A stretch of 64,000 nucleotides of DNA from Takakia lepidozioides (taxonomy: Eukaryota; Plantae; Bryophyta), in the NCBI GenBank assembly GCA_030704615.1, contig CM060734.1, forward strand, positions 50,530,001 through 50,594,000, in the 5' to 3' direction. Below the pieces are notes generated by a model. That model searched no databases, had not been told where the DNA came from, and saw only the letters and a program-made list of their open reading frames with translations. The translations under genes and the position numbers were made by a program. The number at the start of each line of letters is the position of its first letter. Within the stretch, counting starts at the first letter, position 1. Below, in pieces: positions 1 to 64,000 of the stretch.

Positions 1-504
1 ACATGGATGGATGAGCTCATCCAATGGATGGATCCATTCATGTATATGTCTTCAAAATGACACGTATACTAGTAAAGTCATATAAATGTCTTTAAAATGC
101 CATGTGTGTAGTGATGTGTAGTCATTATATATGAGTCATGAATCAATCTGCAGTCAAATAGTCATAAGTTTACATGCCATGTCATGTTGTGGATGAACTC
201 GTCCAATGGATGAATACATTCGTGTATTTGCCTTCAAAATGACACATGTAGCGATGTAGTCGTATAATTAGAGCTGTGAAACCATCTCCAGTCATGGAGT
301 CATAACATTCCATGAAACGTCGTCCATGTGTAGTCAAACATATCACACTAGTCATATAAACCATCCATGTCATTGTGGTCAACGATGTTTGACCAAATCT
401 TCCTAACTTTCCGGAATCATGTAGTGATATCATGCGTCATGTAGTGATAAAACTATGACTGCAACACATTTCAGCGCTCTGTAGTCATCGCCCCTAGTGC
501 AGTT

Positions 505-2190
505 TTATGACTCCGCCAAAGCCGTAGTCCTAAAAACGCTCATCTCTTGTAGTGCCTCTTTGCCCTTTTCCAGAGCTGTCAGGCTTGCACACGCATTGCA
601 AACGCACACAAATGTGATGTGGTCGGGCTTCACCCCTTCCCCCATCATTTGCTCATAGGTCTCCAAAGCCTCCACCCCACGTCCCTGCTGTGCATACCTT
701 GCAATCATCGTGCTCCACGACACCACATCTCGTTCAGCCATATTGTTGAAAACTGCCTTTGAATCCTTAATGCACTTACATACATGTTGACCAGGGCAGT
801 GTTCAGAATGACATCTGGTACAATTCCAGCTTTCACGATGTCATCATGGACCTCTTTCCCCTTTTCCAGGGCTCCCAGGCTTGCACACGCATTGCAAACA
901 CAAACGAACGTGATGTGCAACATTTGCTCATAGGTCTCCAAAGCATTCCTACCACACCCATGCTTGGTAAATCCTGCCAACATTATATTCCACGTGATCA
1001 AAGATGGTCGAGGCATTATGCTAAACACTTGGTGAGCATCCATGATGCTCCCACACTTAACATACATGTTGACAAGGGTGTTGAGGAGAAAAACACTTTG
1101 CGTGAATCCACTTTGGATAATCTGAGTGTGCACCTGCTTTCCAGCTTCCAGACCTTTCATCTTGATACACTTAAGCAAGAGACAGACAAATGTATCTGAA
1201 TCTGCTAAAATACCTCCTACATTGGGCATACATGTCCACGAGGGTATTCAGAATGACATCTGGTACAATTCCAGTTTTGGCGATACAACTATGCCCCTCT
1301 TAGCCCTTTTCCAGGGCTGCCAGGCTTGCACATGCATTGCAAATGCACACAAACGTGATGAGGTTGGGCTTCACCCCTTCCCCCATCATTTGATCATAGG
1401 TCTCCAAATCCACCATCCCATGTCCCTGCAATGCATACCCTACAAGCATCGCGTGCCACGACACCACATCTCGTTCAACCATAGTGTTGAAAACTCCCTT
1501 TGCATCCTCAATGCACCCACATTTGGCATACATGTCCACCAGGGCAGTGTTCAGAATGACATCTGTTACAATTCCAGCTTTTGCGATGCAACCATGCACC
1601 TCTTAGCCCTTTTCCAGGGCTGCTAGGCTTGCACATGCATTGCAAATGCACACAAACGTGATGGGGTTGGGCTTCACCCCTTCCCCCATCATTTGATCAT
1701 AGGTCTGGAGGAGTTTTGGTCCCTGGATCTAAATAGCAACAACACACGGGGAGTAATGCTGGCTGATGAGATGGGGTTGGGAAAGACAATTTCATGCACC
1801 TCTTTGCCCTTTTCCAGGGCTTCCAGGCTTGCAAACGCACAGACCTGATGTGGTCGGGCTTCACCCCTTCCACCATCATTTGCTCACACGTCTCCAAAGC
1901 CTCCATCCCGCGCCCCTGCTGTGCATACCCTGCAAGCATCGCATTCCACGACACCACATTTCATTCAACCATATTGTTGAACACTGCCTTCGCATCCTCG
2001 ATGCTCCAACATTTGGCATACATGTCCACGAGGGAATTGTTCAGAATGACATCGGGTACAATTCCAGCTCTGACAATGTCGCCGTGGGCCTCTTTGCCCT
2101 TTTCCAGAGCTGCCAGGCTTGCACACGCATTGCAAACACACACAAACGTGATGTGGTTGGGCTCACCCCTCACCCATCATTTGCTCATAG
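505..2190 (-). pseudogene. Disrupted PLS-class PPR gene (tandem P-L-S repeats, several frameshifts and stops)
   Basis: Minus-strand ORF fragments repeat VVSWxxMLAGYAQQG / PDHITFVCVCNACASLxALEKGK / LNTALVDMYAKCG motifs in different frames. Confidence 0.9.
1707..1792 (+). other. Inserted fragment of a SNF2-family helicase gene (Walker A region)
   Basis: Plus strand reads LEEFWSLDLNSNNTRGVMLADEMGLGKTI and interrupts the PPR repeat sequence. Confidence 0.75.
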
Positions 2191-3619
2191 GTCTGCGTCA
2201 TTAACTCATGTGTAAGCCGAGCCCGCATATGTACTACCAATGTGTCAATACTGATGCTTCTACCCACATGGGACAGGCCCAAAGCACCACCACAACTAAA
2301 CTTGACTAGCCTACATCAACATAAGCATTTATCAACAAACTATCCACACCATACCCCCCCTCATTTGGATCAATATAAATCCCTAGAAACTTGTGTCTCT
2401 GCTCTGCACAAAAGCCAGATCGTCACCCTTCACTCTCACAAAACTACATACAAAGAATGTCGGATTGCTTCCACGAGCAATTTCACACCCCTGACAACCT
2501 CTACCACACAGCCTCTATCTACATACCAAACATTCTAACGTTGTACCACCCATGTGCATCCACCCTCTGCCAAGCAGTCTAAATTGGTCTCACCAAAGGA
2601 CCCATAATTACAATCTACCACTCTTGGCTGTCTGAGCATCCTCATGGACATGAATTTACGTCTGCTGTGTTTGGCCACCTTCTGTAAAAGACACTATCGA
2701 GTTTTCCAATACTTAATGGCTAGAAGAAGGTGGCCAATATTGATCGTGGTAAATTCTGGATCACTGGGCAATTGATTTGGTCTCATTGAAGCCGGGAAAG
2801 CCACGGGACATTTGCGTTGTGTCAGGCCTGTAGTCTCCCAAACTACTCTCCAGTCAAAAACCAATACCAGCTGGCACAACTTCCCCAACACAGCCAGGGC
2901 GTCCAAGATTATCAACCACAACACCCACACCCCACTCAAACGCACACACTGCCAATCCGTTCATACACCCTGAAACCCTTACTAAAAGCCCTCGAAACAC
3001 ACCATATATCTACTTGGACGCATTTGCTCTTACCAATGTGCTCTGGACATAAATTTGAAATGGCTCGCCCATCATATCCAACTATCTGATGTGTTGCGCT
3101 CCCCATATGTATGCCCTCTTAGACTCCTTCCTCCTCTGTTGCCCCCCACCTAAATGAACATAGGTAGACACTTCCACATATTGAGCAAACCATCCCTGCG
3201 CAAATTTCAAAACATATTGCGGTTTTCATGCTCTGCAAATCCCTCCCCACTGGTGGATACCTACACCCCATTAAATATCAACCCTCTCTGCACTGGGACA
3301 GTCATTTCAAATTTCTGAATCCTTCTGTGATCATCAGTTGGTTCTAACTAAAAGTTGGAGACAAGAAGTTACCTTCATATTGCAGATAACCATGTGATCA
3401 TAAGGAAATGGCAAGAAGGACAGGGACTCTTGTGTTCATGCTGCTCGTGTTCCTCATATGGAAGGCAAATGCCACAAGGACTACGTCCGAAGCTTCCATG
3501 ATTTCCCCTCATGGATGCAGCTATAAGCAAGGATACTCATACTTACTAGAATTGTTCCAGCAAACACCCCAACCCTACTATCACCACTCGTCCTATCGCT
3601 GACTTCTTTGCTAAAAAAG

Positions 3620-3990
3620 GGCATTCACCTTTTTGCCTTGATTATGTCCCAGCTAATATAATGTGCAACAGGTTTCCTAAAGTCAGCAAGGACCCGCTTG
3701 TCCTTTTCCAGGGTTCCAAATTTGGCACATGCATTGAGAATGAACGTGACCCTGTTCGACCTTACCCCTTCATGTTGCATTTGCTCGTAGGTCTCAAAAA
3801 CATCTCTGCTGCACCCATACAGAGCACATCCTACAATCGCTGAACTCCAAGGGACAATATTTCATTTTGCCATATTGTTGAAACTTGACATGCATAGTTC
3901 ATGCTCCCACATTCGGCATACATGTCAGCAAGGGCAGACTCCAGTAAGCGCTAATCCAGTTTTAACAAAGTCAGCGTGTATCTCTAAGCA
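3620..3990 (-). pseudogene. Degenerate PPR fragment
   Basis: Minus frame reads ...ETYEQMQHEGVRSNRVTFILNACAKFGTLEKDK with stops nearby. Confidence 0.7.
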
Positions 3991-4179
3991 GACAGAGATT
4001 GAAACACGGTCTGGCAAGACCAAGCTGACTCTCGCAAAAACCTTGTACACATCAGGAAGAATACCAAATCATGGTACTAACAGGAGGTAGAGATTGAAAC
4101 ATGGCCTGGCAAGAATATGTTGTGTGTGCTGCTTGTGTCTGTAGTCAGATAATGTTGGATCGATCAGACATACAAAATT

Positions 4180-4995: not shown

Positions 4996-6136
4996 TGTTA
5001 TAAAGATCATCTTGATTCATGTTTATCCATCATGCATTCGGTCACGCCGACCTTGACTTCTTGTCTAGTCTTGTACCTCTAGTTTGATCTCTTGTTTGTG
5101 TTTCAGTCATGTTCTCGTCCTTGACACTTAGTGAGAATGGTGTGCCATGTGGTGGGACATGCAAGGTTATAGCAGTGGATGTAAATGAAAGGCGGCTACG
5201 TATGCTCACAAAGATCGCGCAGCAGTAGGGCGTGGATGACATTGTCACTTCATACCACTATGACCTTCGTGATTTTGCGGTGCCCGAATCTTTTAGTTAA
5301 TTTTGCTGATGTTTAGCCATGCTTTTCTTTCCCAACCATCTATGGGAAGTTACAGACGGCCATAATTTTGCCAGGTTTTGTCCATATACGGTAGTCTTTA
5401 AGACTTTAAGATTAGAGAGCTTGCATGAATGTTCAAATCTAGGAATTTGGGATCTCTTGTTGACATTTGTGGTTATTGCTACAAAATGGTTATAAACAAA
5501 ATATTTACACAGTTTAATTAGCGACTACATGGTCGCATTTGTCATTGTTATCTTCCATTGTAGTGATTTGCAAAGTTGTGATAATTGTTATGGAGTGAAA
5601 TAGTGAGAAACTCATAGATTGTGGACAGTTATATGTTTCACCCATGCATGTGTGAGTCAAACGGTTTTACTGTTTAGCTCCCACTGTTTAGTTAATGTGT
5701 AGTGAAATCTTTTTTTAATCATAGTGATGTGTTCTTTCCCTACACGTGCAACCTCCCAATTTCACTATGTAGTACAACACAAAACTAGAACTCTAGATTC
5801 TGCTGCACAAAAATTAGACCTCTAGACTCCCAATTCACTATATAGTACTACACGAAACTGCAACTTTATACCTCATTGTGAAAGTACACACTATTTGTAG
5901 TATTCATATATTCTTTCTCACCAAATAAGATTGTGACACATGGCTTCTTAGTGAACTACCTCACTATATGTTCACCTATAGTAGTTGAATATATTCTTCA
6001 TTCCTAGTGATATGATACCACTACTAGGGTAGCCTGTGCCATTGGCCCAAGTGTCCAGTGTCATCTAATTCCAAGTGCAATCTCATATGTATCCATAGAC
6101 CCTTGTGTTTGAGAGATCTAGGCCTAGGGTAGCATG

Positions 6137-6221
6137 TGTCGTGCGCATACATATTGCTAGACAACTACATCGCTATCCAAACCACACCACACATATATGC
6201 ACAATAAAGTAGTCTACCACA
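6137..6221 (-). repeat. Terminal repeat block A1 (85 bp)
   Basis: Direct repeat of 6577-6661 with 3 substitutions. Confidence 0.95.
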
Positions 6222-6222
6222 A

Positions 6223-6574
6223 TGATAAACAAGCATAGAGACACTGTTGACACAAAACATATGAAATCCATCGCTATTACTCTTTATAATAGAAGTCGAG
6301 CCAGGGGCACCCCAAGCTATGGGGACTCCACCCCACAACAACCTACACTCCCATCATGAGTACACTCAGATCTAAACGCATGCAGGAGCTCGGTCGCGCA
6401 GGCTCAACTCGAGAGAGATGAGCTGCGCGACTGCCGCTCTCGTGAAAGATAAGACGGACCAGGTGTCAAACTAAACTTGACACCTGATTTAACACTTGAC
6501 CTAAATCCAAGTGTTAAATACAAATAACTAGTTTTATGCTAGCTGTTTTCACACTGTGCTTATTTAACTTGACA
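6223..6574 (-). repeat. LTR block B1 (352 bp)
   Basis: Direct repeat of 11129-11479; about 2 substitutions and one 1-bp indel seen. Confidence 0.95.
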
Positions 6575-6576
6575 GC

Positions 6577-6661
6577 TGTCGTGCGCATACATATCGCTAC
6601 ACAACTACATCGCTGTCCAAACCACACCACACATATATGCACAATAAAGTAGTCTACCACA
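6577..6661 (-). repeat. Repeat block A2, directly downstream of the polypurine tract in element orientation
   Basis: Minus strand: AGGGGGGcgat-TGTGGTAG...CACGACA-gc-TGTCAAG. Confidence 0.95.
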
Positions 6662-6920
6662 ATCGCCCCCCTAGCTGGTGGATAGGTCCCTCTACCTCCA
6701 GATAGCTACAAGACGTAATAGCCATAGCCGTACTAAGTCCTGTATCACTGTCCCTATCGTACTCAAACTCTATAGATCAAGAGGCCGGGTGCAAGAGTAG
6801 CCCCATCGTTAGTCGCCGTCTGGCAATCTGTGAACTTGAGCCAGGACTTCGTGTATTCAAGGTCTCCTGTAGAAGGGCCTTGCGTGGCTTGTTAGCCTCC
6901 CATGGTTGTATCCACTCCCA

Positions 6921-8168
6921 CTATCCAATGCATTGTGGACATAACCAATCCCCATTTGGAACCATCTCAAGAGGTGGAGTCAAGCACCCCATATGCCAAC
7001 CTCTAGAGCATCGATCACACACCAGCATGGTGGCTGCCCCTTTAGCAGACCCACACAACATGCACCTCAAACCTGCAGATACCACTGCCAGGTTTGGGTC
7101 AATCCTGCCATCGACATTTGGAAGGTGACATGGCGCACAATTACGCACATGGTCCTTCCAAGTTATGCCATCCCGACCCTCCAAGACCAAGACGCCTGAG
7201 GGCAAGACCTCTCGAACCCTCAAAATAACACGTCCTGCAGTCACATCCAGGGTCGTAGGAGCAGTCTGCTGCAGATAGACATAGTCACCAGGGTTGAATC
7301 TCCGAACCCCAGGACGATAGCCCCCACCACGTATGGTAGCATACCTCAACGTATCACGGTGTTGTGCAATGGCAAGGTTCTCGAAAGCCATGGGCATGAC
7401 TCTCTTGAACAACTCTGCACGCTGCTCACATGCACGGGCCCACACGTCCGGATCATCAAGGTTAAGAACTGTAGCAGCTTCTCTGCGAATGGATGTAGGC
7501 AAATCCGGCTCTCGGCCAAAGAGAAGAAAGTATGGTGAGAAGGAGGCAAGTGATGCTTGCTTGCTGAACCTGTAGCCCATGGCTAACCAGGGTAACTGAA
7601 GGTCCCAATCTCCTAGGTGTCCCTTCTGCAAGCCATACTTGCGCAAACCCCTCTTTACTGTCTGAACAACTCTCTCTGCCAAGCCATCGGCTTCAGGATG
7701 ATCCCGAGAAGTGGTGCGGTGGTCTATCAAGGCCTTGTCACATAAAGCCTGAAACTCCCCCAAGAACTCTCTCCCTTGGTCCGTGAGTACCTCAGCTGGA
7801 GCACCGAATCGGCTAAGCACACAATCCAGGAATGCATACGCAGCTCCCTCACTAGCCTTATCAGGCAATGGAACCAATTCAATCCACTTGGAGAAGTGCT
7901 CCACCATCACCAACACGTACTTGTTGTGGCGCATGGTCAGTGGCAACGGCCCTGCGAAGTCAAGACTCAACCTGTAGCCCAATCCCATGATCGGAAGAGG
8001 GTGCAATTGTGGAGTAGGGGCGTTGAATGAAGCACGCACCCTGTCACATACCATGCACCTAGCCACAAATTGTTGCACCTCTGTGTGCATACCACGCCAC
8101 CAATACTGCCCCTGCAGTAGACTATGAGTGCGTCGCACCCCAAAAATGCCCCAACTCCTCATGGGCAT
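6921..8168 (-). CDS. DDE integrase with C-terminal PHD finger (frameshifted from RT-RH near 8145)
   Basis: YWWRGM..CMVC zinc motif, SLDFAGPLP, VLTDQGREF, DGLAERVV; ends CMLC...CDRC..GWHMGCLTPPL..VPNGDWLCPQC (C4HC3). Confidence 0.92.
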   Translation of the reverse strand: MPMRSWGIFGVRRTHSLLQGQYWWRGMHTEVQQFVARCMVCDRVRASFNAPTPQLHPLPIMGLGYRLSLDFAGPLPLTMRHNKYVLVMVEHFSKWIELVPLPDKASEGAAYAFLDCVLSRFGAPAEVLTDQGREFLGEFQALCDKALIDHRTTSRDHPEADGLAERVVQTVKRGLRKYGLQKGHLGDWDLQLPWLAMGYRFSKQASLASFSPYFLLFGREPDLPTSIRREAATVLNLDDPDVWARACEQRAELFKRVMPMAFENLAIAQHRDTLRYATIRGGGYRPGVRRFNPGDYVYLQQTAPTTLDVTAGRVILRVREVLPSGVLVLEGRDGITWKDHVRNCAPCHLPNVDGRIDPNLAVVSAGLRCMLCGSAKGAATMLVCDRCSRGWHMGCLTPPLEMVPNGDWLCPQCIG

Positions 8169-10365
8169 GCCGCACTAACCGTGCCCGCTGTGTTGGGTGA
8201 GGCACAATCCTCACTCGACCATCCTCCCACACTCGGAGCAGGTGTGTCCCCTCCCACCTGAACGTCTTGGCTCGTTGTAGGATCCGATCCCTCTCCTTGG
8301 CAGTCATAGTGGCTGTCGTGTCTCCACTGCGGAGGTAGTCCAACACAACTGAATCCTCATGTATATCTTTGGCGCCACCCTGCTCATTGCTGGCCTCAGG
8401 GTCCTCAGACACTTGATCTACAGTCATCCCTGTTGTAGGTCCAACCTGGCCTTCCGCTGCCAAGATACACAGAAATGCAGATGCATGCCATCCGGGCACC
8501 ATCTCCTCGTCCGTCTCACCATGCCACCGAGCTCCAGTGTCATCCTGCTGGCTCGTGCATGGATTGCGACTCAACCCATCTGCATTTCGATTGACCAAAC
8601 CCGGTCGATGCACCACCTGAAAGTCATACTCTTGAAGGATGAGTGCCCACCGTGCAAGCTTCCCCGTAAGCTTGTCTGACTCCATCAACCACTTGAGTGG
8701 TTGGTGATCCGTGACAAGGGTGAAGAGATTGCCGTATAGATAGCACCTGAAGTGTGCCACGGCCCACACTGCAGCTAAGCATTCTCCCTCATATGAGCTA
8801 TACTTAAACTCTGCAGCATTGTTCGAGCGGCTAGCATAAGCCACTACGAACTCTCTTCCCTCATCATCCACCTGTGTGAGCACCGCTCCAAGCCCCAGCA
8901 TGCTCCAATCTGTATGCAGCTGAAAAGGACGCCCCCTGATAGGTCGTCTCAAGATGGGCGCCGAGGTCAACCTCGCCTTGAGCTCTTGAAAAGCTTGTTC
9001 TTGCTCATCTTCCCACTGCCACTCCTGGTCCACCTTGGTCAGCTTGGTTAGAGCCTTTGCAATGGCACTAAATCCCTTAACAAACCGTCTGTAATAGTTT
9101 GCTAACCCCATGAAAGCTCGAACTCGGCTCACATCCGTGGGGCGTGGAACCTGTGCAATGGACTCTACCTTAGTCTGCTGTACCCCCAATCCTCCAGGAT
9201 ATATCATGTGACCCAGATACTCAATCTGGTTGTGGAAAAACTTGCACTTGCCCGGATGTAACTTCAATCCGTGCGTCCTCAAGCGCTCAAATACCCCCTG
9301 AAGGTGTCTCTCATGCTCCTCCACCGTAGCACTAAAGATGATGATGTCATCTATGTAGCACCGAGCAAACTCCACCCCTGCTAGAATCCTGTCCATGACT
9401 CTTTGAAACTCAGCGGGAGCGTTTTTAAGCCCAAATGGTAAGAACCGCCACTGGTATAGGCAATCCTTCCCGTGCTCATTGATCCCCCAGAATGCCGTCT
9501 TTTGCTTATCCGCCTCCTTGATCGGCAACTGGTGATATCCGGATCGTAAATCCAACGTGCTAAAGACCTTGGAATGCCCAATGGCATCAAAGATCTCCTC
9601 TGGTGTTGGCATGGCATACCTATCGGACTTGGTCTGACGATTTACAGGCCGGTAATCACCACACATACGTCTCTCCGTCCAATTGCCATAGACATCCTTC
9701 TTAGCTGGCATCACTGTGGCTGAAGCATACTCTCCACCAGAGAGCTCCACCAAACCTGCCTCCCAGAGATCTTGAGTCCTCATCTGAATCAAAGACCTCT
9801 CCATGTCACTGTACCTATAGGGTCTCCGAAAGATTGGCGTGTCAGTGGCCAACTCAATACGGATCTCTTGACCCTTCAGTGCTCCCAAGTCCTTCAAACT
9901 GAAGGCAAAGCAATTCCTATAAGCCCTCAGGAACCGCCGTATACGTCGTCTCTCTCCTCCGGTGACAATGGGTCCAATGTCAGGCTCCCAATTGTCCTCC
10001 GTAACTGCAACCTTAAGTCCAGTGGGCTTAGAGGTAGAGGACGCGTCCCGTGGTTGCTATGCTGCAACCTCTTGAGCAGTACCCCCTTCCTGCTCAGTCA
10101 ATGACAAGGCCTCATCCTGCCCCATCATCTCATCATTGAGAACCTCCTCATCCCGAGAAGAATCCCCAACCTCATCCATCACAGCTGCCTTCGCTGCCAA
10201 CTCCCTCTGAACCTCGAGCACCTCCCACATGTGCCATGGATGTCTACACCTCGTGGTCCTCACCGGCTCGCCCCACTCGCTGCCTGTACCGTCTCGGTAG
10301 GCAGAGAGACCGTCAAGGAAGTGCACTCCGCACTCTACGTTGCTCAGCCATAGCCAAGCTGACAA
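8122..10365 (-). CDS. Gypsy reverse transcriptase and RNase H (in-frame TAG at 10057-10059 in the upstream linker)
   Basis: RMCGDYR, LDLRSGYHQ, PFGLKNAP, YIDDIII, HTDWS, TDHQPL, NADGLSR. Confidence 0.95.
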
Positions 10366-11030
10366 TCCAGGTCAAGCAATTGAGATCCATTGCTTGCCCC
10401 AACACCTGACGACGTGATGCCTCAGAAAGAGAAGGCACCGCCGTGGTCCCAGTGGAAAACCCCATAGCCCGCTCTCGCTCGTCGGCATTAGGCTCCACTA
10501 ACTGCTGCAACTGAGCATCCCACAGGAGGCCAGGTCCACCATCCCGAAAAGCATGGGATCCTGGGAAGCTGAGCAGTGTAGGTAATGCTGTTCGTGGTTG
10601 ACCCACCCTGTTGACCACTGCCAAAGGCGAACGGTCATCGTGTCTCACACGTTGAGACTGCCTTCCTGTGTCCAAAATGTTATCCACGGTGAGGTGTGCT
10701 GGCCGCTGCACCCCATCAAATGCACGCTTGAGCAGTGCGGGTGGCATAAAGTTAGTCCACCATAGTCGTGGACGATGAGCCCGTGACCCCACTGCAGCTG
10801 CATCCAGCAACACTGCTGACCCAAGCCACGACCGGACTTGATGCACACTGGCCATCACCCTGGCCCGAGAATCACCCATCAGTGGTACATTCTCCAAGAT
10901 GTATGCTGGAGATACGGCTTGATGAAGCTGCAAGCAGCGCAAAATCCGCACCATCTCCCAAAACAGACCCGTCCTCGAGTCTCGCAATCCATTGCCATGC
11001 CCGGCTGATGAATGCCCTTGGCAGGGCCAG
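10313..11030 (-). CDS. DNMT3-like C5-cytosine methyltransferase catalytic domain (N-terminal motif I missing)
   Basis: WPCQG (motif IV), YILENV (VI), AHRPRLWWTN (VIII), ERERAMGF (IX), RRQVLGQAM (X). Confidence 0.88.
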
Positions 11031-11112
11031 ATGGACTCCCGCCCCAAGATATATATTATAATAATGCTAAAACAAACATTGTATCTAGCTTAGCACCAGC
11101 ACACTAGATAAC

Positions 11113-11128
11113 GCTCATCTCTCTCGAG
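11113..11128 (-). promoter_or_regulatory. Self-complementary primer binding site
   Basis: CTCGAGAGAGATGAGC abuts block B2 and is complementary to 6408-6423 and 11314-11329 inside B. Confidence 0.8.
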
Positions 11129-11479
11129 TGATAAACAAGCATAGAGACACTGTTGACACAAAACATATGAAATCCATCGCTATCACTCTTTATAATAGAA
11201 GTCGAGCCAGGGGCACCCCAAGCTATGGGGACTCCACCCCACAACAACCTACACTCCCATCATGAGTACACTCAGATCTAAACGCATGCAGGAGCTCGGT
11301 CGCGCAGGCTCAACTCGAGAGAGATGAGTTGCGCGACTGCCGCTCTCGTGAAGATAAGACGGACCAGGTGTCAAACTAAACTTGACACCTGATTTAACAC
11401 TTGACCTAAATCCAAGTGTTAAATACAAATAACTAGTTTTATGCTAGCTGTTTTCACACTGTGCTTATTTAACTTGACA
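11129..11479 (-). repeat. LTR block B2 (5' end of the element)
   Basis: Near-identical to 6223-6574. Confidence 0.95.
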
Positions 11480-11749
11480 CATGTGTCATTGGCCCATGTG
11501 TGAAGAATTGAAATCTAAGCCAAATGCAATCTCATATGTATCCAAGTGCTTCTCCCATGTAGAGGCCCAAGTGCGACCTCGAGTGTCCAATGTCATCTAA
11601 GTCCAAGTGCCCCTATGCATCCTGAGACCTTGCAGTTTGGGAGATCTCCACATCATTGTTCCAACAAAGCCCACTTTGCTTTTTTGCAATCTCCCTTGTC
11701 GAGGCTTCATATATTGATATATCCACTTTGCTATTTTTTGCGAGTTTCC

Positions 11750-11955
11750 AACGACCAAAGTACTTGAAATTCCAAATCTGGGCCAATCATTGCTCCAGAA
11801 AAGCCCACTTTGCTAGCGAATTTTCTAGCGACCCAAAGTACTTGAAATTCCAAATCTCCTACTTAAAGGGCCAATCATTGCTCTACAAGAGCTCACCATG
11901 CTATTTTTCAAAAACAATTCCAGCGACCCAAAGCACTTGAAATTCCACATCTCCC
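11750..11955. repeat. Three imperfect copies of gacccaaagtacttgaaattccaaatct
   Basis: Copies near 11752, 11830 and 11925. Confidence 0.7.
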
Positions 11956-12784
11956 ACACTGCGGGTCCGAAAATATGAGACCAAGCCGGTGCACCGCTCC
12001 TCATCAAGGGCTTTCCAACGTGGCACCAAGCTCTATAGGGGACTCATTCAATTCCTAGCTACTAAGTACAATGGCCTTTACTCCAGGCTGCCAACCCTTC
12101 ATCCCCAATCCTGCCGCCATTCTCCCACCGCTAGAACTCTATATTATACATCTTACGCCAAATGAACATTAGAATACAAACCGATCTCCCTGGCTATCCT
12201 AACACCATCTCACCCCTTGAAGTCGTCTGGCTTAACAGTCCATCTCTCCCTGAATTTGAGGAACTTCACCCCTGCCAAAAAACGCTCATACTTGCTTACT
12301 TTAAAATCAGACACATCACGACACTTACCCAACTCACCACAGCCTTTGGCTATAGACTACTCTCACCCCGAGAGTTCACTCTCAAATACTCCAGAGCCAC
12401 TGTCAAAACATGTCAATACATGTCCCTGCTTCGAACCCTTTTCTGCCACAAGACTCCCTCATGTTCTCTTGAGTGCGACCTACCATGCAAACTCTTTCCC
12501 CATAACAAACTAGACCTTCTTCCTCAATATAAAACACACCCAGCCCCATCTATTCTAAGTATGATGGCAGCACATAAAGCTCACCCTGACCCTTCAAATT
12601 CTAACACCCCTCCCATGTCGCCTTGCCACTCTATGTCCCCCTCCCAAATGACCAATTCAAACTTGACCATCCCTCTGGCTCAACCACCCCCCACACCCCC
12701 ATCCAAACCTCCTCTACCCCGCTTACCCCGACCAGCCCGCCCTCGCCGGCCTCAACCCCGAGATATATTAACCCAGACAATCCG

Positions 12785-12932
12785 GAAGCCTTCATTATCG
12801 AAGCTATTCTAGGGATCAGAACTCAGATCACCACCGACAAATTTGGCGCCACATGCCTAGACACTTTCTACTTATGCAAATGGGTTGGGTACCCATCGGA
12901 AGATAATACCTAGCAAGCAGAGGACGACCTAT
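12785..12932 (+). pseudogene. Chromodomain within the LINE ORF (TAG at the conserved W)
   Basis: FIIEAILGIR...FYLCKWVGYPSEDNT*QAEDDL. Confidence 0.75.
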
Positions 12933-13380
12933 TTGGGTCCCATGAGGACTGTGACTCGGTCCACAACCTTAACATCCTCACCGCATTTCTTAAGTCCACT
13001 AATACCAACTACCTAGCCCATACCCACCAACAACACACTTCCCAAACCCAATCGATGGACGCCCGGTACGTCCATAACCCCCTAGTTGCCCCCGAGGTAC
13101 ATGTCTGCATCACAGAATGCAATCCTGACAAAGACATTCTACACACCTCCCCTATAATACGCTCCGGCAAGCACCTGTCCAAGTTATATGCCTCACATGG
13201 CTGCTTCATTGGTCTCATTCCTAATGACAGACTCACCTGGCTATGGCACAGATTCTCAAATTCAAACCCGCCACCTAGCCTACTCACGCCCGCTAAACAA
13301 GACTTCGCTACTAAAGTCTGCTGGCTCATGGATCGCTACTTGACTGATACCCCCTCCAAAAACCTCGCTCCCTCCTCAAG

Positions 13381-13700
13381 CTAAGACAAGCCCAATCCCA
13401 TATTACCCTTCCACCGGACATACTAGCACTCCTTATAAACTCCTTCCAAATTACACACTCTTATAACTCAAGCCTACTTACATGCCCTATGGTGCTTTCG
13501 TCATACTCAAGCCCACACCCCCGAGCCTGCATATTTGGAGCCTTAGGCTCTGCCTATCAATATACGTGGACGGGCCGCGGCTTTGCACAACCGTCCCAAG
13601 GATCCCACATGCATGACGTTTTACAATGGGCTCGCCACGCAGTCCAAACATCCCCCTCTACCGCCACCATCCTCCTTCTGACTCACCAACAATTGCCAAA
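13381..13700 (+). pseudogene. PCIF1/Dam-like N6-adenine methyltransferase-like domain within the LINE ORF
   Basis: ITLPPDILALLINSFQITHSYNSSLLTCP..SYSSPHPRACIFGALGSAY..TWTGRGFAQP follows the LP..F..FASPL..Y.S...FG..G....NPP spacing. Confidence 0.5.
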
Positions 13701-14109
13701 TGGCCCGCACCCTCTCTCCCAGCTACCCCATGAGGTTACGCCTCTAGTCGCTATCGACCCTGGCATCCAATACTCTCGCACCCCGCCCCTCCCCAAGTAC
13801 CTTAAACAGCAAGAACCCACCTTAACCAGGCCTTAACCCTCATACTGCTTGTCAATCGCACGACCACAACTACCCCCATACCCGCCGACTTCCCATCTCG
13901 CATCACTGCCTTCTAACAAACACACATAGCATGAAGGTCACCACATTCCCTATTCCCCCTCCCTAACGTCCGTTACCCCCCGCCTTTACCCTAAAATAAA
14001 TTCATCCAAAACATGGTCTCGAATGCTCACCCATCCACCCATCCCCCCTACCACACCTATCCACACCGAACCTCCGCTATTCCGGACGGATCTCCTTCTC
14101 AAATACCCG

Positions 14110-14510
14110 TCTGCCCACTCCCACTACACCGACGGATCCCTCATTGCTGGTCCTAGGGCTGGGTATGGTTTCTATCACACCGCTACCAACCAAGGCATTT
14201 CCCTACGTCTCCCTAGCCCGGCCACCATCCTTCGTGCCGAGTTCATGGCCATACATGTTGCCCTCACCCAGCTCTCATCATTCCCCCCACCCCATTATAT
14301 TTTTACTGATAGTCTCACATCACTCTTTCTCATCCGCAATCACCGCCATCGACCCTCTTCTCACCACTACCACTCTGACCGGAACCTAATCATAGTTCAA
14401 ATTGCTATCTCTATAAACCAGCCCATCCACTTTCTTAAAGTTCGCTCCCACACTGGCATCACTGGCAACGAAATGGCTAACTTCTTTGCCCAACAAGGTG
14501 CCACCCAATC
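14110..14510 (+). CDS. RNase H domain of the LINE
   Basis: YTDGS, RAEFMAI, IFTDS, KVRSHTGITGNEMAN. Confidence 0.9.
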
Positions 14511-15599
14511 CGAGGTGGACCCTACGTCGGATCCCATCCATGTGGCCCATACCTACCCCTTTTGGTTCATCCACCTCGTTCCAGGCCCCACGGAGCCTCG
14601 CCCTATCCGCAATCTCTCTACCACCCTTACTCGAGTAGGCAGCAAACAAGCCTCCTCCTCTGCAAGCCACACTAAGCTACATGTCCAGAAATGGACACAA
14701 TCTGATGTGCTACACCATAAGCTGTCTTATCACTTCTGGCACACTTTAATCTCGCCACCGATGCCCAAATAAAACAGAGCCTCAAATTCAGATATGCACA
14801 ATACATGGGCCACCAATGTAAACATATCTTTTGGCCTCACCTCTTCCTTACCCAAATTGTCCACTCTATGCTTGCACCCACTTTGCCCGTGACACTTGGC
14901 CCCACCTACTCAGCCAATGCACACATCCCATCATCCATGGCCTCCGTGTCACTCGACATAACCATGTTGTTTGGCACATCCATAAGCTACTCCTACGTCA
15001 ACCTGCAACACGTTGGTTTTCATTCATCAATGCGAGGACATATCAAGGTAGGCCCCCTGACCACACTGTACCCTTATGGCTTCTGCCCTGTTCATGCCGG
15101 CCACCCTCACCCTGCACATGTCCTACCAGACTCTGTCATGACATACTTCTAGTCCACATATTGCCTATGAATGCGCCTCCGCCAAGCATCCCATCCCCAA
15201 ACCTCACCATACACTTTATTGAATTCACATATTGTAATGATCGCTACCCCAGCTCCACCACATTGGAAAAACGTCAAAAATACGCTCCGTTCGTCCTATC
15301 CGTTTGCCATCCTGGCTGGTCCACATGGGGTCCACATGCCCCCTCACGATCATTACTACCGGCACCAGAGGCGGCATCCACAATGCTAGTATCTATGCCC
15401 TTCACACTAACTTCAAAATTCCTATCTCCCCTATACACAAATGCTTCAAGGCTATCCACCTAACTGTGATTCCCTCCCTCACTGCTATTATTACCAACAA
15501 AAGGCATCTTGAATCCCATATCTCTTCAGGCTCTTGAAACTCCGTATACCCTAGGGGTACCCCCTGGGATACCTTTCCGAGCACCAGTCCCCTGAGTTA

Positions 15600-63334: not shown

Positions 63335-64000
63335 TCACCAGTACTCCCCGCAAGAACAAAACCCATCTTGGAAGTGGTGAAAGCGGTTGGCATCCCGTAC
63401 AACAATTGCCCGGCCAACAATCTTCGAAATGAACCTGGTGGTTGTGTGGCAGTCACCACAAACGCGAAGGTTCTTGATGATACAGAGAGGTGTCCCAGCA
63501 GGCGTGCTGATGATCCCAAATGCAATGGCTAGCTTCTCACTGTGGTGGCAAAGAAAAAATTCCTTTTGCTCCTCCTCCACATCATGCAATGCAAACCGCG
63601 TGTCAGGCACATACCCAGCCTCCTTCATCCACCCAAATAACCTTTCCAGCTCAGTGTGGATTTGCTCAGTTTGTGGATGCAATTTCGTGTGTACACTGAA
63701 TGTATGTACATGATTGTTGACCTCAATGCAACTGCGGCCTGTCTCTTTTTGTACACCTCTGTCCTTCATCATTCTTCTTACCTTTGCAGTGTCGTCCCAC
63801 CTGCCAGCTGCAGCATAGATGTTTGATAGCAGCACATAAGTTGCAGCGTCCTGTGGATCCAACGTGAGAAGGCATTTTGCTGCACGTTCAGCCACCTCCA
63901 CATTGCCATGAATTCTGCAAGCACCAAGCAAGGCCCCCCACACTGCAGCTGCTGGCTCCATTGGCATTTTGCTGATGAAGTCCTCTGCCTCATCTAATCG
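63335..64000 (-). CDS. PLS-class PPR RNA-editing factor, E1/E2/DYW C-terminus (extends beyond the window)
   Basis: VWGALLGACRIHGN, YVLLSNIYAAAGRW, HHSEKLAIAFG, KNLRVCGDCH, CSCGEYW. Confidence 0.96.
   Translation of the reverse strand, partial: RLDEAEDFISKMPMEPAAAVWGALLGACRIHGNVEVAERAAKCLLTLDPQDAATYVLLSNIYAAAGRWDDTAKVRRMMKDRGVQKETGRSCIEVNNHVHTFSVHTKLHPQTEQIHTELERLFGWMKEAGYVPDTRFALHDVEEEQKEFFLCHHSEKLAIAFGIISTPAGTPLCIIKNLRVCGDCHTTTRFISKIVGRAIVVRDANRFHHFQDGFCSCGEYW

Follow-up and report, generated by a model that had tools for sequence, protein, structure and literature searches.

A young, defective land-plant copy of a Gypsy-DNMT3 retrotransposon, from a family with both a DNMT3-like methyltransferase and an integrase ending in a PHD finger

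The window analysed here is a stretch of 64,000 nucleotides (nt) of Takakia lepidozioides DNA (contig CM060734.1, positions 50,530,001 to 50,594,000), and all positions are counted from its first letter. One retrotransposon copy occupies positions 11479..6137 of the minus strand, with the 4-bp target duplication CATG on both sides. The copy is a land-plant member of the already known Gypsy-DNMT3 kind of element. It encodes a fragment of a DNMT3-like DNA methyltransferase (DNMT), a reverse transcriptase (RT), an RNase H (RH) and an integrase (INT), the last of which ends in a PHD finger. Intact relatives have the organization gag(CCHC)-protease-DNMT, a conserved stop, and RT-RNase H-integrase-PHD, so that the protease (PR) and the methyltransferase belong to a first open reading frame (ORF1) and the enzymes of replication and integration to a second (ORF2).

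Domains and reading frames of the window copy

The window copy was read from stop-to-stop ORFs, a Pfam scan and a three-frame motif reading of the minus strand. The ORF 11089..10313 matches Pfam DNA_methylase (E 1.4e-8, 35 bits with a cut-off of 22) over profile positions 70-156 of 324. The methyltransferase keeps its C-terminal two thirds, with PC and ENV intact. The ORF 10056..8122 matches RVT_1 (E 1.5e-32) and RT_RNaseH (E 1.2e-35), and the ORF 8174..6921 matches Integrase_H2C2 (E 9.1e-11), rve (E 5.2e-13) and PHD (E 1.1e-10, 41.8 bits with a cut-off of 24). No Chromo match was found by Pfam in the integrase ORF. The ORFs of the linker and of RT share one frame and are parted solely by the TAG at 10059..10057, while the DNMT ORF is in another. 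The features are collected in Table 1, where X7 and X2, like X1, X5, X6 and X9 below, denote coded sequencing runs whose contigs were compared with the window.

A preliminary description, made from the letters of the window, had named methyltransferase motifs with PC and ENV upstream of RT, one frameshift and one TAG away from the pol frame, and an integrase ending in a PHD finger where chromoviruses have a chromodomain. All of the named parts were found, the ORF frames agree with the described offset, and the PHD finger does stand in the chromodomain's place. The profiles proposed as a check (DNA_methylase, PHD, RVT_1 and rve) all matched, so that the absence of a DNA_methylase match, which would have spoken against the description, was not encountered.

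Table 1. Features of the retrotransposon copy, listed along its sense strand
Feature	Position	Strand	Remark
Upstream target-site duplication CATG	11480..11483	minus	Flank ...ACATG, then TGTCAAG
Repeat A1, 5' terminal, starts TGTC	11479..11129	minus	Repeat search within the window
Stretch inside A, exact complement of the 16-mer after A1	11328..11313	minus	Predicted RNA 5' end if self-primed
16-mer right after A1, resembling a primer-binding site	11129..11114	minus	Complement to 16 nt in A; predicted self-priming site
Remnant or filler, primer site to breakpoint	11030..11113	minus	Summed X2 depth 36-218, against thousands in adjoining repeat-derived parts
DNMT3-like C5-methyltransferase fragment, motifs IV-X only	10316..11029	minus	Catalytic Cys codon 11023..11021
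DNMT motif IV WPCQG	11029..11015	minus	
DNMT motif VI ENV	10894..10886	minus	
DNMT motif VIII RAHRPR	10783..10766	minus	
DNMT motif EPNADERERAMGF	10495..10457	minus	Listed between VIII and X
DNMT motif X GQAMDLN	10399..10379	minus	
Linker ORF from DNMT to RT, 104 codons, RT frame	10371..10057	minus	HPWxxW..VL motif common to relatives
Frame change after the DNMT domain	10242..10319	minus	Siblings have one base more at 10316 and at 10270; premature TGA 10315..10313
In-frame stop TAG, then CAA CCA; boundary of ORF1 (gag-PR-DNMT) and ORF2 (RT-RH-INT-PHD)	10051..10059	minus	Predicted leaky
RT and RNase H, open for 644 codons	8125..10056	minus	RT YIDD 9357..9346
Integrase: H2C2 zinc domain, DDE core, long C-terminal region	6924..8150	minus	D, D and E residues readable
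Extra base in a T/G run	8142	minus	Omitted in 45 X1 contigs, 3 X5 and 1 X9; breaks the frame between RNase H and integrase
PHD finger, complete C4HC3 (residues 371-415)	7064..6930	minus	Final domain; followed by the stop TAG 6923..6921
Polypurine tract AGGGGGGCG abutting B1	6672..6664	minus	Tract and position alike in L056, L053 and L050
Repeat B1	6663..6577	minus	Repeat search within the window
B1/A2 junction GACA-GC-TGTC, 10-bp palindrome of joined element termini	6571..6580	minus	One X7 contig with identical junction
Repeat A2	6574..6223	minus	Repeat search within the window
Repeat B2, 3' terminal, ends GACA	6223..6137	minus	Repeat search within the window
Downstream target-site duplication CATG	6133..6136	minus	Four letters identical to the upstream copy

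The methyltransferase as a component of the family

Relatives of the DNMT ORF are numerous. Among longer proteins 71 were found at E<=1e-3, the best of them in Calypogeia fissa (74%), Marchantia polymorpha (many proteins, 70-72%) and Sphagnum (52-56%), besides many metagenome proteins. A search of the full protein library with the same ORF returned 1209 cluster representatives at E<=1e-3, 177 of them at <=1e-30; judged by these scores, the DNMT match is far beyond chance. A scan of metagenomes confirmed the DNMT in 144 of 242 candidate stretches, and 80 loci were kept. When the 35 loci of at least 9 kb were mapped with domain queries, the order PR-DNMT-RT-RH-INT-PHD was met wherever the parts were present, and Pfam gave the family domain content in 14 relatives, with a CCHC gag and Asp_protease upstream of RT. 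The proposed pairing of a DNMT3-like methyltransferase with a PHD-tipped integrase in a retrotransposon polyprotein is borne out by these stretches and by the domain order of the long loci.

The collected proteins, 417 in all, were sorted by domain cuts and include 107 RT-DNMT-INT, 44 DNMT-INT, 16 RT-DNMT, 4 DNMT-RT-INT, 4 DNMT-RT, 95 DNMT only and 30 RT-INT. In 19 of 22 long representatives the DNMT match by Pfam falls after RNase H and ahead of the integrase ('type B'), in one it precedes RT ('type A'), and the other two have the DNMT only; a PHD match is present in 16 of the 19 of type B.

Two trees were built, both of them unrooted, from a quick search and with no host DNMT3 rows. The integrase tree has 76 rows; 30 of these are of type B, a random choice among the type B rows that had an integrase cut. 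It contains a 26-row group, comprising the window, Klebsormidium nitens, three of the four rows with DNMT before RT and rows with ORF2 only, at a support of 99 in the approximate likelihood ratio test (SH-aLRT). None of the 33 RT-DNMT-INT rows falls inside this group, and the fourth row with DNMT before RT, P0071, lies outside it on a long branch. The DNMT tree (65 rows) is split between type A (32 rows and the window) and type B (32 rows) with SH-aLRT 98, and the window is found beside a Calypogeia/Marchantia group (98). The two trees agree on the main split, and they show that the DNMT has moved together with the element.

The named K. nitens protein, P0306 (KFL_009030040, partial), is of type A with the order DNMT-RT-RH-INT. 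Its integrase is 58% identical to that of the window over 320 residues, and the protein ends about 40 residues before the position of the PHD finger. A search with integrase residues 200-417 found no K. nitens protein in the best 120 of 179 matches, and a PHD is not mentioned in the text or legends of PMC5890265, where the K. nitens element KnitGypsy-Dnmt3 is described. Descent shared between the window element and KnitGypsy-Dnmt3 is indicated by the sequence comparisons. Of the land-plant lineage that the preliminary description had put forward, the host assignment stands, the nearest named relatives being liverworts and the neighbouring genes of the PPR and DYW-type PPR kinds. The lineage is not separate from the Klebsormidium clade, as judged by the trees, the domain order and the A-coding-B-A-B order of repeats treated below; the suggested phylogeny against the Klebsormidium DNMT elements puts the window in the same clade in both trees (SH-aLRT 99 for the integrase, 98 for the DNMT).

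Contigs matching the family number 59,164 in X1 (at least 90% over 6.4 kb) and 2,810 in X2 (at least 97% over 761 nt); these figures are rough indicators and not copy numbers, and they give a rough sign that the family is highly repeated in the X1 organism. At the metagenome loci L024, L051, L053, L056, L062 and L063 two or more family copies are nested or adjacent, some in opposite orientation, which suggests that the family tends to accumulate in the same regions. The nearest integrase relative, P0316 (80% over 322 columns), is an ORF of a EukProt transcriptome assembly (a TRINITY contig), which hints that some species transcribe the ORF2 of a close relative. Two long near-identical contigs of X6, a run whose RNA nature is only guessed, were not used as evidence of transcription. 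P0033, a protein of 455 residues with DNMT only, 52% identical and encoded on a contig of 2410 nt, is labelled as a 'Candidatus Obscuribacterales' metagenome-assembled genome (MAG) DNA cytosine methyltransferase; it is probably a fragment of a eukaryotic retrotransposon binned into a bacterial genome.

The PHD finger and the predicted targeting of integration

The solved PHD fingers that match best are those of CHD4 (1.9e-16), PHF12, KDM5B PHD1 (1.1e-13), KDM5A PHD1, ATXR5, MLL3, PHF21A and DPF3, followed later by AIRE and UHRF1, and the best 60 of the 97 solved matches include no finger of the ING, BPTF or TAF3 type. Fingers of the CHD4, PHF12, KDM5, ATXR5, PHF21A, DPF3, AIRE and UHRF1 types mostly read histone H3 in which K4 or R2 is unmethylated. 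Because its nearest solved relatives are such readers, the finger of the integrase is predicted to read H3 unmethylated at K4. Being carried by the integrase, it would direct integration to the tails of histone H3. The C-terminal part of the window integrase shares about 50% identity with volvocine proteins.

The finger might instead read H3K4me3, the mark of active promoters, or bind a non-histone partner. PHD fingers are versatile, and elements with long terminal repeats (LTRs) that target promoters are known, both of which would suit such a specificity. The best 60 of the 97 solved matches are nevertheless led by recognized readers of unmodified K4 or R2 and lack the ING, BPTF and TAF3 types, so that this specificity is considered rather unlikely, and the reading of unmodified H3K4 is preferred.

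Type and possible activity of the methyltransferase

As to which METHYLTRANSFERASE the family carries, a profile of 16 family sequences was run against all solved chains. DNMT3A was the best match (2.4e-25, 92.6 bits), and the same profile gave DNMT3C at 5e-24, DNMT3B at 3.5e-23, plant DRM at 3.7e-12 (49 bits) and M.HhaI at 1.8e-8. This search of solved structures was used in place of host DNMT3 and DRM rows in the trees, and on the question of DNMT3 or DRM affinity raised at the outset it favours DNMT3. In the relatives the motifs follow each other in the normal order I, IV, VI, VIII, X; the circular permutation of the DRM type (VI-X before I-V) was not met there. The name 'DNMT3-like' is supported by these comparisons. 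Motif I, which was to be recovered from a full-length consensus, is supplied by natural intact relatives, in which an LFGGIGTGL-like motif lies upstream of motif IV.

In an alignment of 25 rows two residues never vary, the E of ENV and the second R of R-x-R; at least 90% of the rows have the Cys and Gln of motif IV, the N of ENV and the first R of R-x-R. With PC, ENV and R-x-R conserved throughout the family, its DNMT is presumably catalytically active, and it would then mark the element's own DNA. The domain could also be a module without catalysis, made with Gag and serving, for instance, to bind DNA or nucleosomes or in assembly, by which no DNA is methylated. Its place in the Gag-protease ORF, and not with RT and integrase, would fit such a module, as would the finding that the DNMT of KnitGypsy-Dnmt3 gave no methylation in yeast (PMC5890265). 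This alternative is unlikely in view of the catalytic signature conserved in the alignment and of the motif-I region, which aligns with DNMT3A; moreover, the SymbioDIRS-Dnmt3 enzymes, which belong to another class of element, are active and are reported to methylate CG de novo (PMC5890265). A catalytic role of the family enzyme is therefore the preferred one.

A conserved stop before the reverse transcriptase

The TAG before RT is a conserved feature and not damage. Of 58 loci with an RT N-terminus, the window included, the aligned site holds a CAA-CYN codon pair in 49, and the codon before the pair is a stop at 48 of these 49 sites (35 TAG and 13 TAA; the remaining one is GAG). In the intact loci L003 and L004 the frame upstream of the stop is the DNMT frame, open for 449-451 codons. 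In gene calls from Marchantia, Calypogeia and metagenomes, ORF1 closes 84-130 residues downstream of the DNMT domain, and proteins of the ORF2 type begin just beyond. More distant members of type A, K. nitens included, have no stop before RT.

UAG followed by CAA-YYA is the read-through context of the tobacco-mosaic-virus type, and the CAA CCA of the window fits it. The conserved stop is probably leaky. Read-through of the UAG/UAA-CAA stop would make ORF2, and the DNMT, being made with Gag and protease, would be in excess over RT and integrase. Plain decay of an ancestral single gag-pol ORF, to which both the TAG and the frame breaks would then be due, is quite improbable. It can appeal to predicted proteins that hold DNMT and RT together (P0046, P0068, P0047/P0084, K. 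nitens P0306 and Marchantia P0010), but the stop falls at one and the same codon, as TAG or TAA only, in copies otherwise 60-70% identical to the window. The independent gene calls end ORF1 and start ORF2 around this stop, and the two frame breaks, unlike the stop, are absent from sibling copies.

Deletion and frame lesions

The DNMT homology in the window starts exactly at the W of WPCQ (11029), and the tblastn match begins at reference residue 143. Aligned relatives have 142 further residues upstream, including motif I. In full-length relatives about 3.8 kb, holding the CCHC gag and the aspartic protease, separate the end of A1 from the DNMT domain, compared with about 100 nt in the window. 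It follows that about 3.9 kb, comprising gag, protease and DNMT motifs I-III, is deleted at 11029/11030. Contigs that run past 11029 with the missing N-terminal part (encoding ...IDLVVAG) were found in X1 (38 loose ends), X2 (7) and X9 (1). The X2 depth between the primer site and the breakpoint resembles that of a single copy, and the deletion form itself is for this reason probably not a multiplied subfamily.

Two frame breaks are private to the window copy and absent from sibling copies. The frame passes from +3 to +1 between the 10316 and 10270 places, and the bases present there in siblings explain the change after the DNMT. The extra base at 8142 likewise explains the change between RNase H and integrase, which in relatives lie in a single frame. 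The window copy is presumably inert; any movement of it would depend on proteins from intact siblings. The preliminary description had entertained methylation of the element's own cDNA; for this particular copy that is impossible, because motifs I-III, gag and protease are deleted.

The notion that the DNMT segment is a piece of a host DNMT3 gene caught by this one copy through transduplication, with no role in the family, has next to no probability: the fragment does lack motifs I-III and a start codon and does abut the 5' repeat, as a captured scrap might, but a full-length DNMT occupies the corresponding place in the 80 kept loci and in proteins of liverworts, Sphagnum and K. nitens, it diverges together with the integrase with the same main split in both trees, and sibling contigs continue beyond the breakpoint with the missing part.

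Interpretation of the copy and its family

It is highly probable that the window holds a recently inserted, defective copy of a Ty3/Gypsy-type element of the Gypsy-DNMT3 kind, in whose family the DNMT likely methylates the element's own DNA and the PHD finger of the integrase would tether integration to H3 tails. Self-methylation and H3-guided integration are likely properties of the family, and both are impossible for the window copy.

Several observations weigh against this interpretation. The isolated K. nitens DNMT domain gave no methylation in yeast, in an assay from which its authors drew no firm conclusion, as human DNMT3B failed too (PMC5890265). Pairwise ratios of nonsynonymous to synonymous substitution (dN/dS) among intact metagenome copies are 0.60 for the C-terminal part of the DNMT (9 pairs), 0.60 for RT (15 pairs) and 0.93 for PHD (68 pairs), and they give no positive indication that DNMT or PHD is under selection. 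The input consisted of open full-length segments only (5 DNMT C-terminal parts, 6 RT, 2 RNase H, 1 integrase and 15 PHD), copies with any stop or a split alignment having been dropped beforehand, and the high ratios are taken to reflect mainly decay after insertion. The specificity of the PHD finger is drawn solely from its similarity to solved fingers. Read-through, similarly, is deduced from the conservation of the stop together with the known sequence context in plant viruses, and most relatives have CAA CCC, which fits the read-through consensus in the first codon only. Finally, none of the listed contigs bridges the deletion breakpoint by at least 31 letters on both sides, and the junction rests on the window and on the single-copy-level depth in one run, which may itself be the source of the window.

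Repeats, replication signals and the ends of the element

The repeats of the window copy have the sense-strand order A1 - coding - B1 - A2 - B2, and its termini are TGTC...GACA (TG..CA). B1 and B2 are 96.6% identical over 87 nt. A1 and A2 are 99.1% identical over 352 nt, by which the insertion is young. The order A-coding-B-A-B is confirmed in the relatives L050, L053 and L056 (whole) and L009, L011 and L049 (3' end). The target duplication is CATA in L056 and L053, a single insertion seen in two samples, and TCTC in L050, while three A-coding-B relatives have TACA, TGTG and TGTT; a perfect 4-bp duplication thus accompanies all six independent insertions with both ends known. On the 3' side of the PHD finger, B-A-B was found in six loci and a lone B in nine, and B was found upstream of A1 in none of 18 loci. 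Copies of the A-coding-B form, without the second A and B, are L015, L038 and L071 (whole) and L025, L026, L041, L043, L044 and L051 (3' ends). They could be primary products or derivatives of B x B recombination.

The signals of replication define a different unit. The polypurine tract and the primer site delimit a B-A unit, which is the repeat that reverse transcription would build. The perfect 16-nt self-complement between A and the primer site was reached by none of 200 shuffles (shuffle maximum 9). Pairing of 10-12 nt at corresponding relative places, with different letters, is present in L004, L029, L071 and L072; in the other loci, many of them degenerate, exact matching gave no self-complement pairing. 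No TGG of a tRNA-type primer site was found after A1. From its sequence the element looks self-primed in its reverse transcription. Self-priming of this sort is known in Tf1-like elements.

The junction between A2 and B2 (6218-6230) is the end of the primer-defined B-A unit joined to its own start, as at the junction of a two-LTR circle. Integrated copies are nevertheless bounded by the start of A and the end of B, with 4-bp duplications, despite the B-A unit given by the replication signals, and this end structure presents a concrete mechanistic puzzle. In one possible solution, reverse transcription would build ordinary B-A long terminal repeats, and a single cut of the two-LTR circle at the palindrome would yield A-coding-B-A-B copies with 4-bp target duplications. 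The boldest reading of all the data is an ancient, integrase-bearing clade, extending over the green lineage, with a DNMT3 writer made with Gag and a PHD reader of H3K4me0, whose integrase cuts the internal palindrome GACA-GC-TGTC, a built-in circle junction, instead of the tips of the repeats. This reading is tentative and on the whole doubtful; if true, it would amount to a route of integration known for no LTR element.

The two flanks of the element are alike over 64 nt (81%; 11482-11544 and 6035-6095). This likeness was rejected as a part of the element, as it lies outside the target duplication and is better described as a local repeat of the target. In the upstream flank (11745-11957) 40-nt repeats recur about 78-95 nt apart, and the insertion seems to have hit a local tandem repeat. 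In X1 there are joints that leave out the entire element, but their sides are 20-27 letters long in locally repeated flanks, and they were not counted as an empty-site allele.

Surroundings of the element

Another mobile-element remnant adjoins on the plus strand (12135-15460), in a sequence with a strong C-poor/G-rich skew (GC skew -0.46 to -0.37). It contains a chromodomain fragment (12605-12913, Pfam Chromo E 5.8e-5, below the cut-off) and an RNase H (13930-14769, E 2.6e-13). On the minus strand, positions 500-4000 hold arrays of PPR repeats with direct-repeat families of 54-300 nt and PPR Pfam matches at 708-1247, and positions 63338-64000 hold the last part of a PPR editing-factor gene, with its E-motif and DYW deaminase, truncated where the window ends. 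By themselves these genes and the liverwort-like relatives of the element would indicate a bryophyte host, plausibly a leafy liverwort, since marchantiid liverworts are not known to have DYW proteins.

Significance and comparison with known systems

The capture of DNMTs by retrotransposons had been given in the preliminary description as reported for dinoflagellates and Klebsormidium, and a literature search, with most subscription journals outside its scope, indeed found only K. nitens and dinoflagellates described. Within the same scope no paper was found on DNMT-bearing retrotransposons in liverworts or mosses, on the chlorophyte type with the order RT-RH-DNMT-INT-PHD, or on the pairing of DNMT and PHD. 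Neither liverworts nor Sphagnum were included in the 2018 survey of DNMT elements, as it is described in PMC5890265, and passages of later papers write of 'streptophytes (Gypsy-DNMT3)'. Three observations on the family were not found in print, namely its constant association with a PHD finger, the stop conserved before RT, and ends that are permuted yet accompanied by target duplications.

Retrotransposons that bear the very enzyme with which their hosts silence them are a rare case of a genomic arms race. The streptophyte example in the literature found rests on one alga, and the lineage of the window is abundant in bryophytes, with many annotated but unremarked family proteins in Marchantia polymorpha. 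The function of the DNMT is experimentally approachable because Marchantia is a genetic model; the abundance in bryophytes, the pairing with a PHD-tipped integrase and the position of the DNMT in the Gag-protease frame together open its role to study there.

The order of RT, RNase H and DDE integrase, the TG..CA termini and the short target duplication are those of Ty3/Gypsy elements. Identical long terminal repeats at the very ends are not present, as the element starts with A and closes with B; the window copy has lost the gag and protease that precede RT in the relatives. Like the chromoviruses, the element has a histone-reader domain at the C-terminus of its integrase, but the reader is a PHD finger and not a chromodomain. 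The chromodomain of chromoviruses is thought to steer integration (PMC6673714). A PHD in pol, as in the window, is also known from green-algal Gypsy elements, namely Gypsy-7a_cRei, according to a figure legend of PMC9940879, and REM1 of Chlamydomonas, as cited in PMC6673714; in what these two sources say of them, no DNMT is mentioned for either.

With the DIRS/PAT-like elements, including SymbioDIRS-Dnmt3, the window element shares the split direct repeats A-coding-B-A-B with an internal copy of the joined termini (legend to Fig. 1e of PMC5890265). Unlike them, it has a DDE integrase and no tyrosine recombinase, TG..CA ends, 4-bp duplications, and a polypurine tract and primer site at the places usual for LTR elements. 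The host enzymes DNMT3A/B/C are the best matches of the family profile, over motifs I-VIII and IX-X. The family enzyme differs from them in its longer stretch between motifs VIII and IX and in being embedded in a retrotransposon polyprotein, and Pfam detected neither ADD nor PWWP in the scanned family proteins.

The chlorophyte elements of type B, from Scenedesmus sp. PABB004, Haematococcus lacustris and Chromochloris zofingiensis (annotated 'pol' or hypothetical), have a homologous DNMT and a PHD-tipped integrase. Their DNMT, unlike that of the window, is located between RNase H and integrase, and in each tree the best-supported split separates them from the window. Type B (P0096, P0272, P0285 and 16 further long representatives) is common in chlorophytes and metagenomes, and in P0178, P0285, P0271 and P0278 a G-patch is found between DNMT and integrase. 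KnitGypsy-Dnmt3 has, like the window element, a DNMT3-type, non-rearranged enzyme upstream of RT in a polyprotein of Gypsy content, and its repeats are given the DIRS-like order A-coding-B-A-B in the legend to Fig. 4c (PMC5890265, de Mendoza 2018). The window element differs from it in its host, a land plant with relatives in liverworts, and in the stop between DNMT and RT, which is conserved in the window's sub-lineage, whereas the K. nitens protein is continuous.

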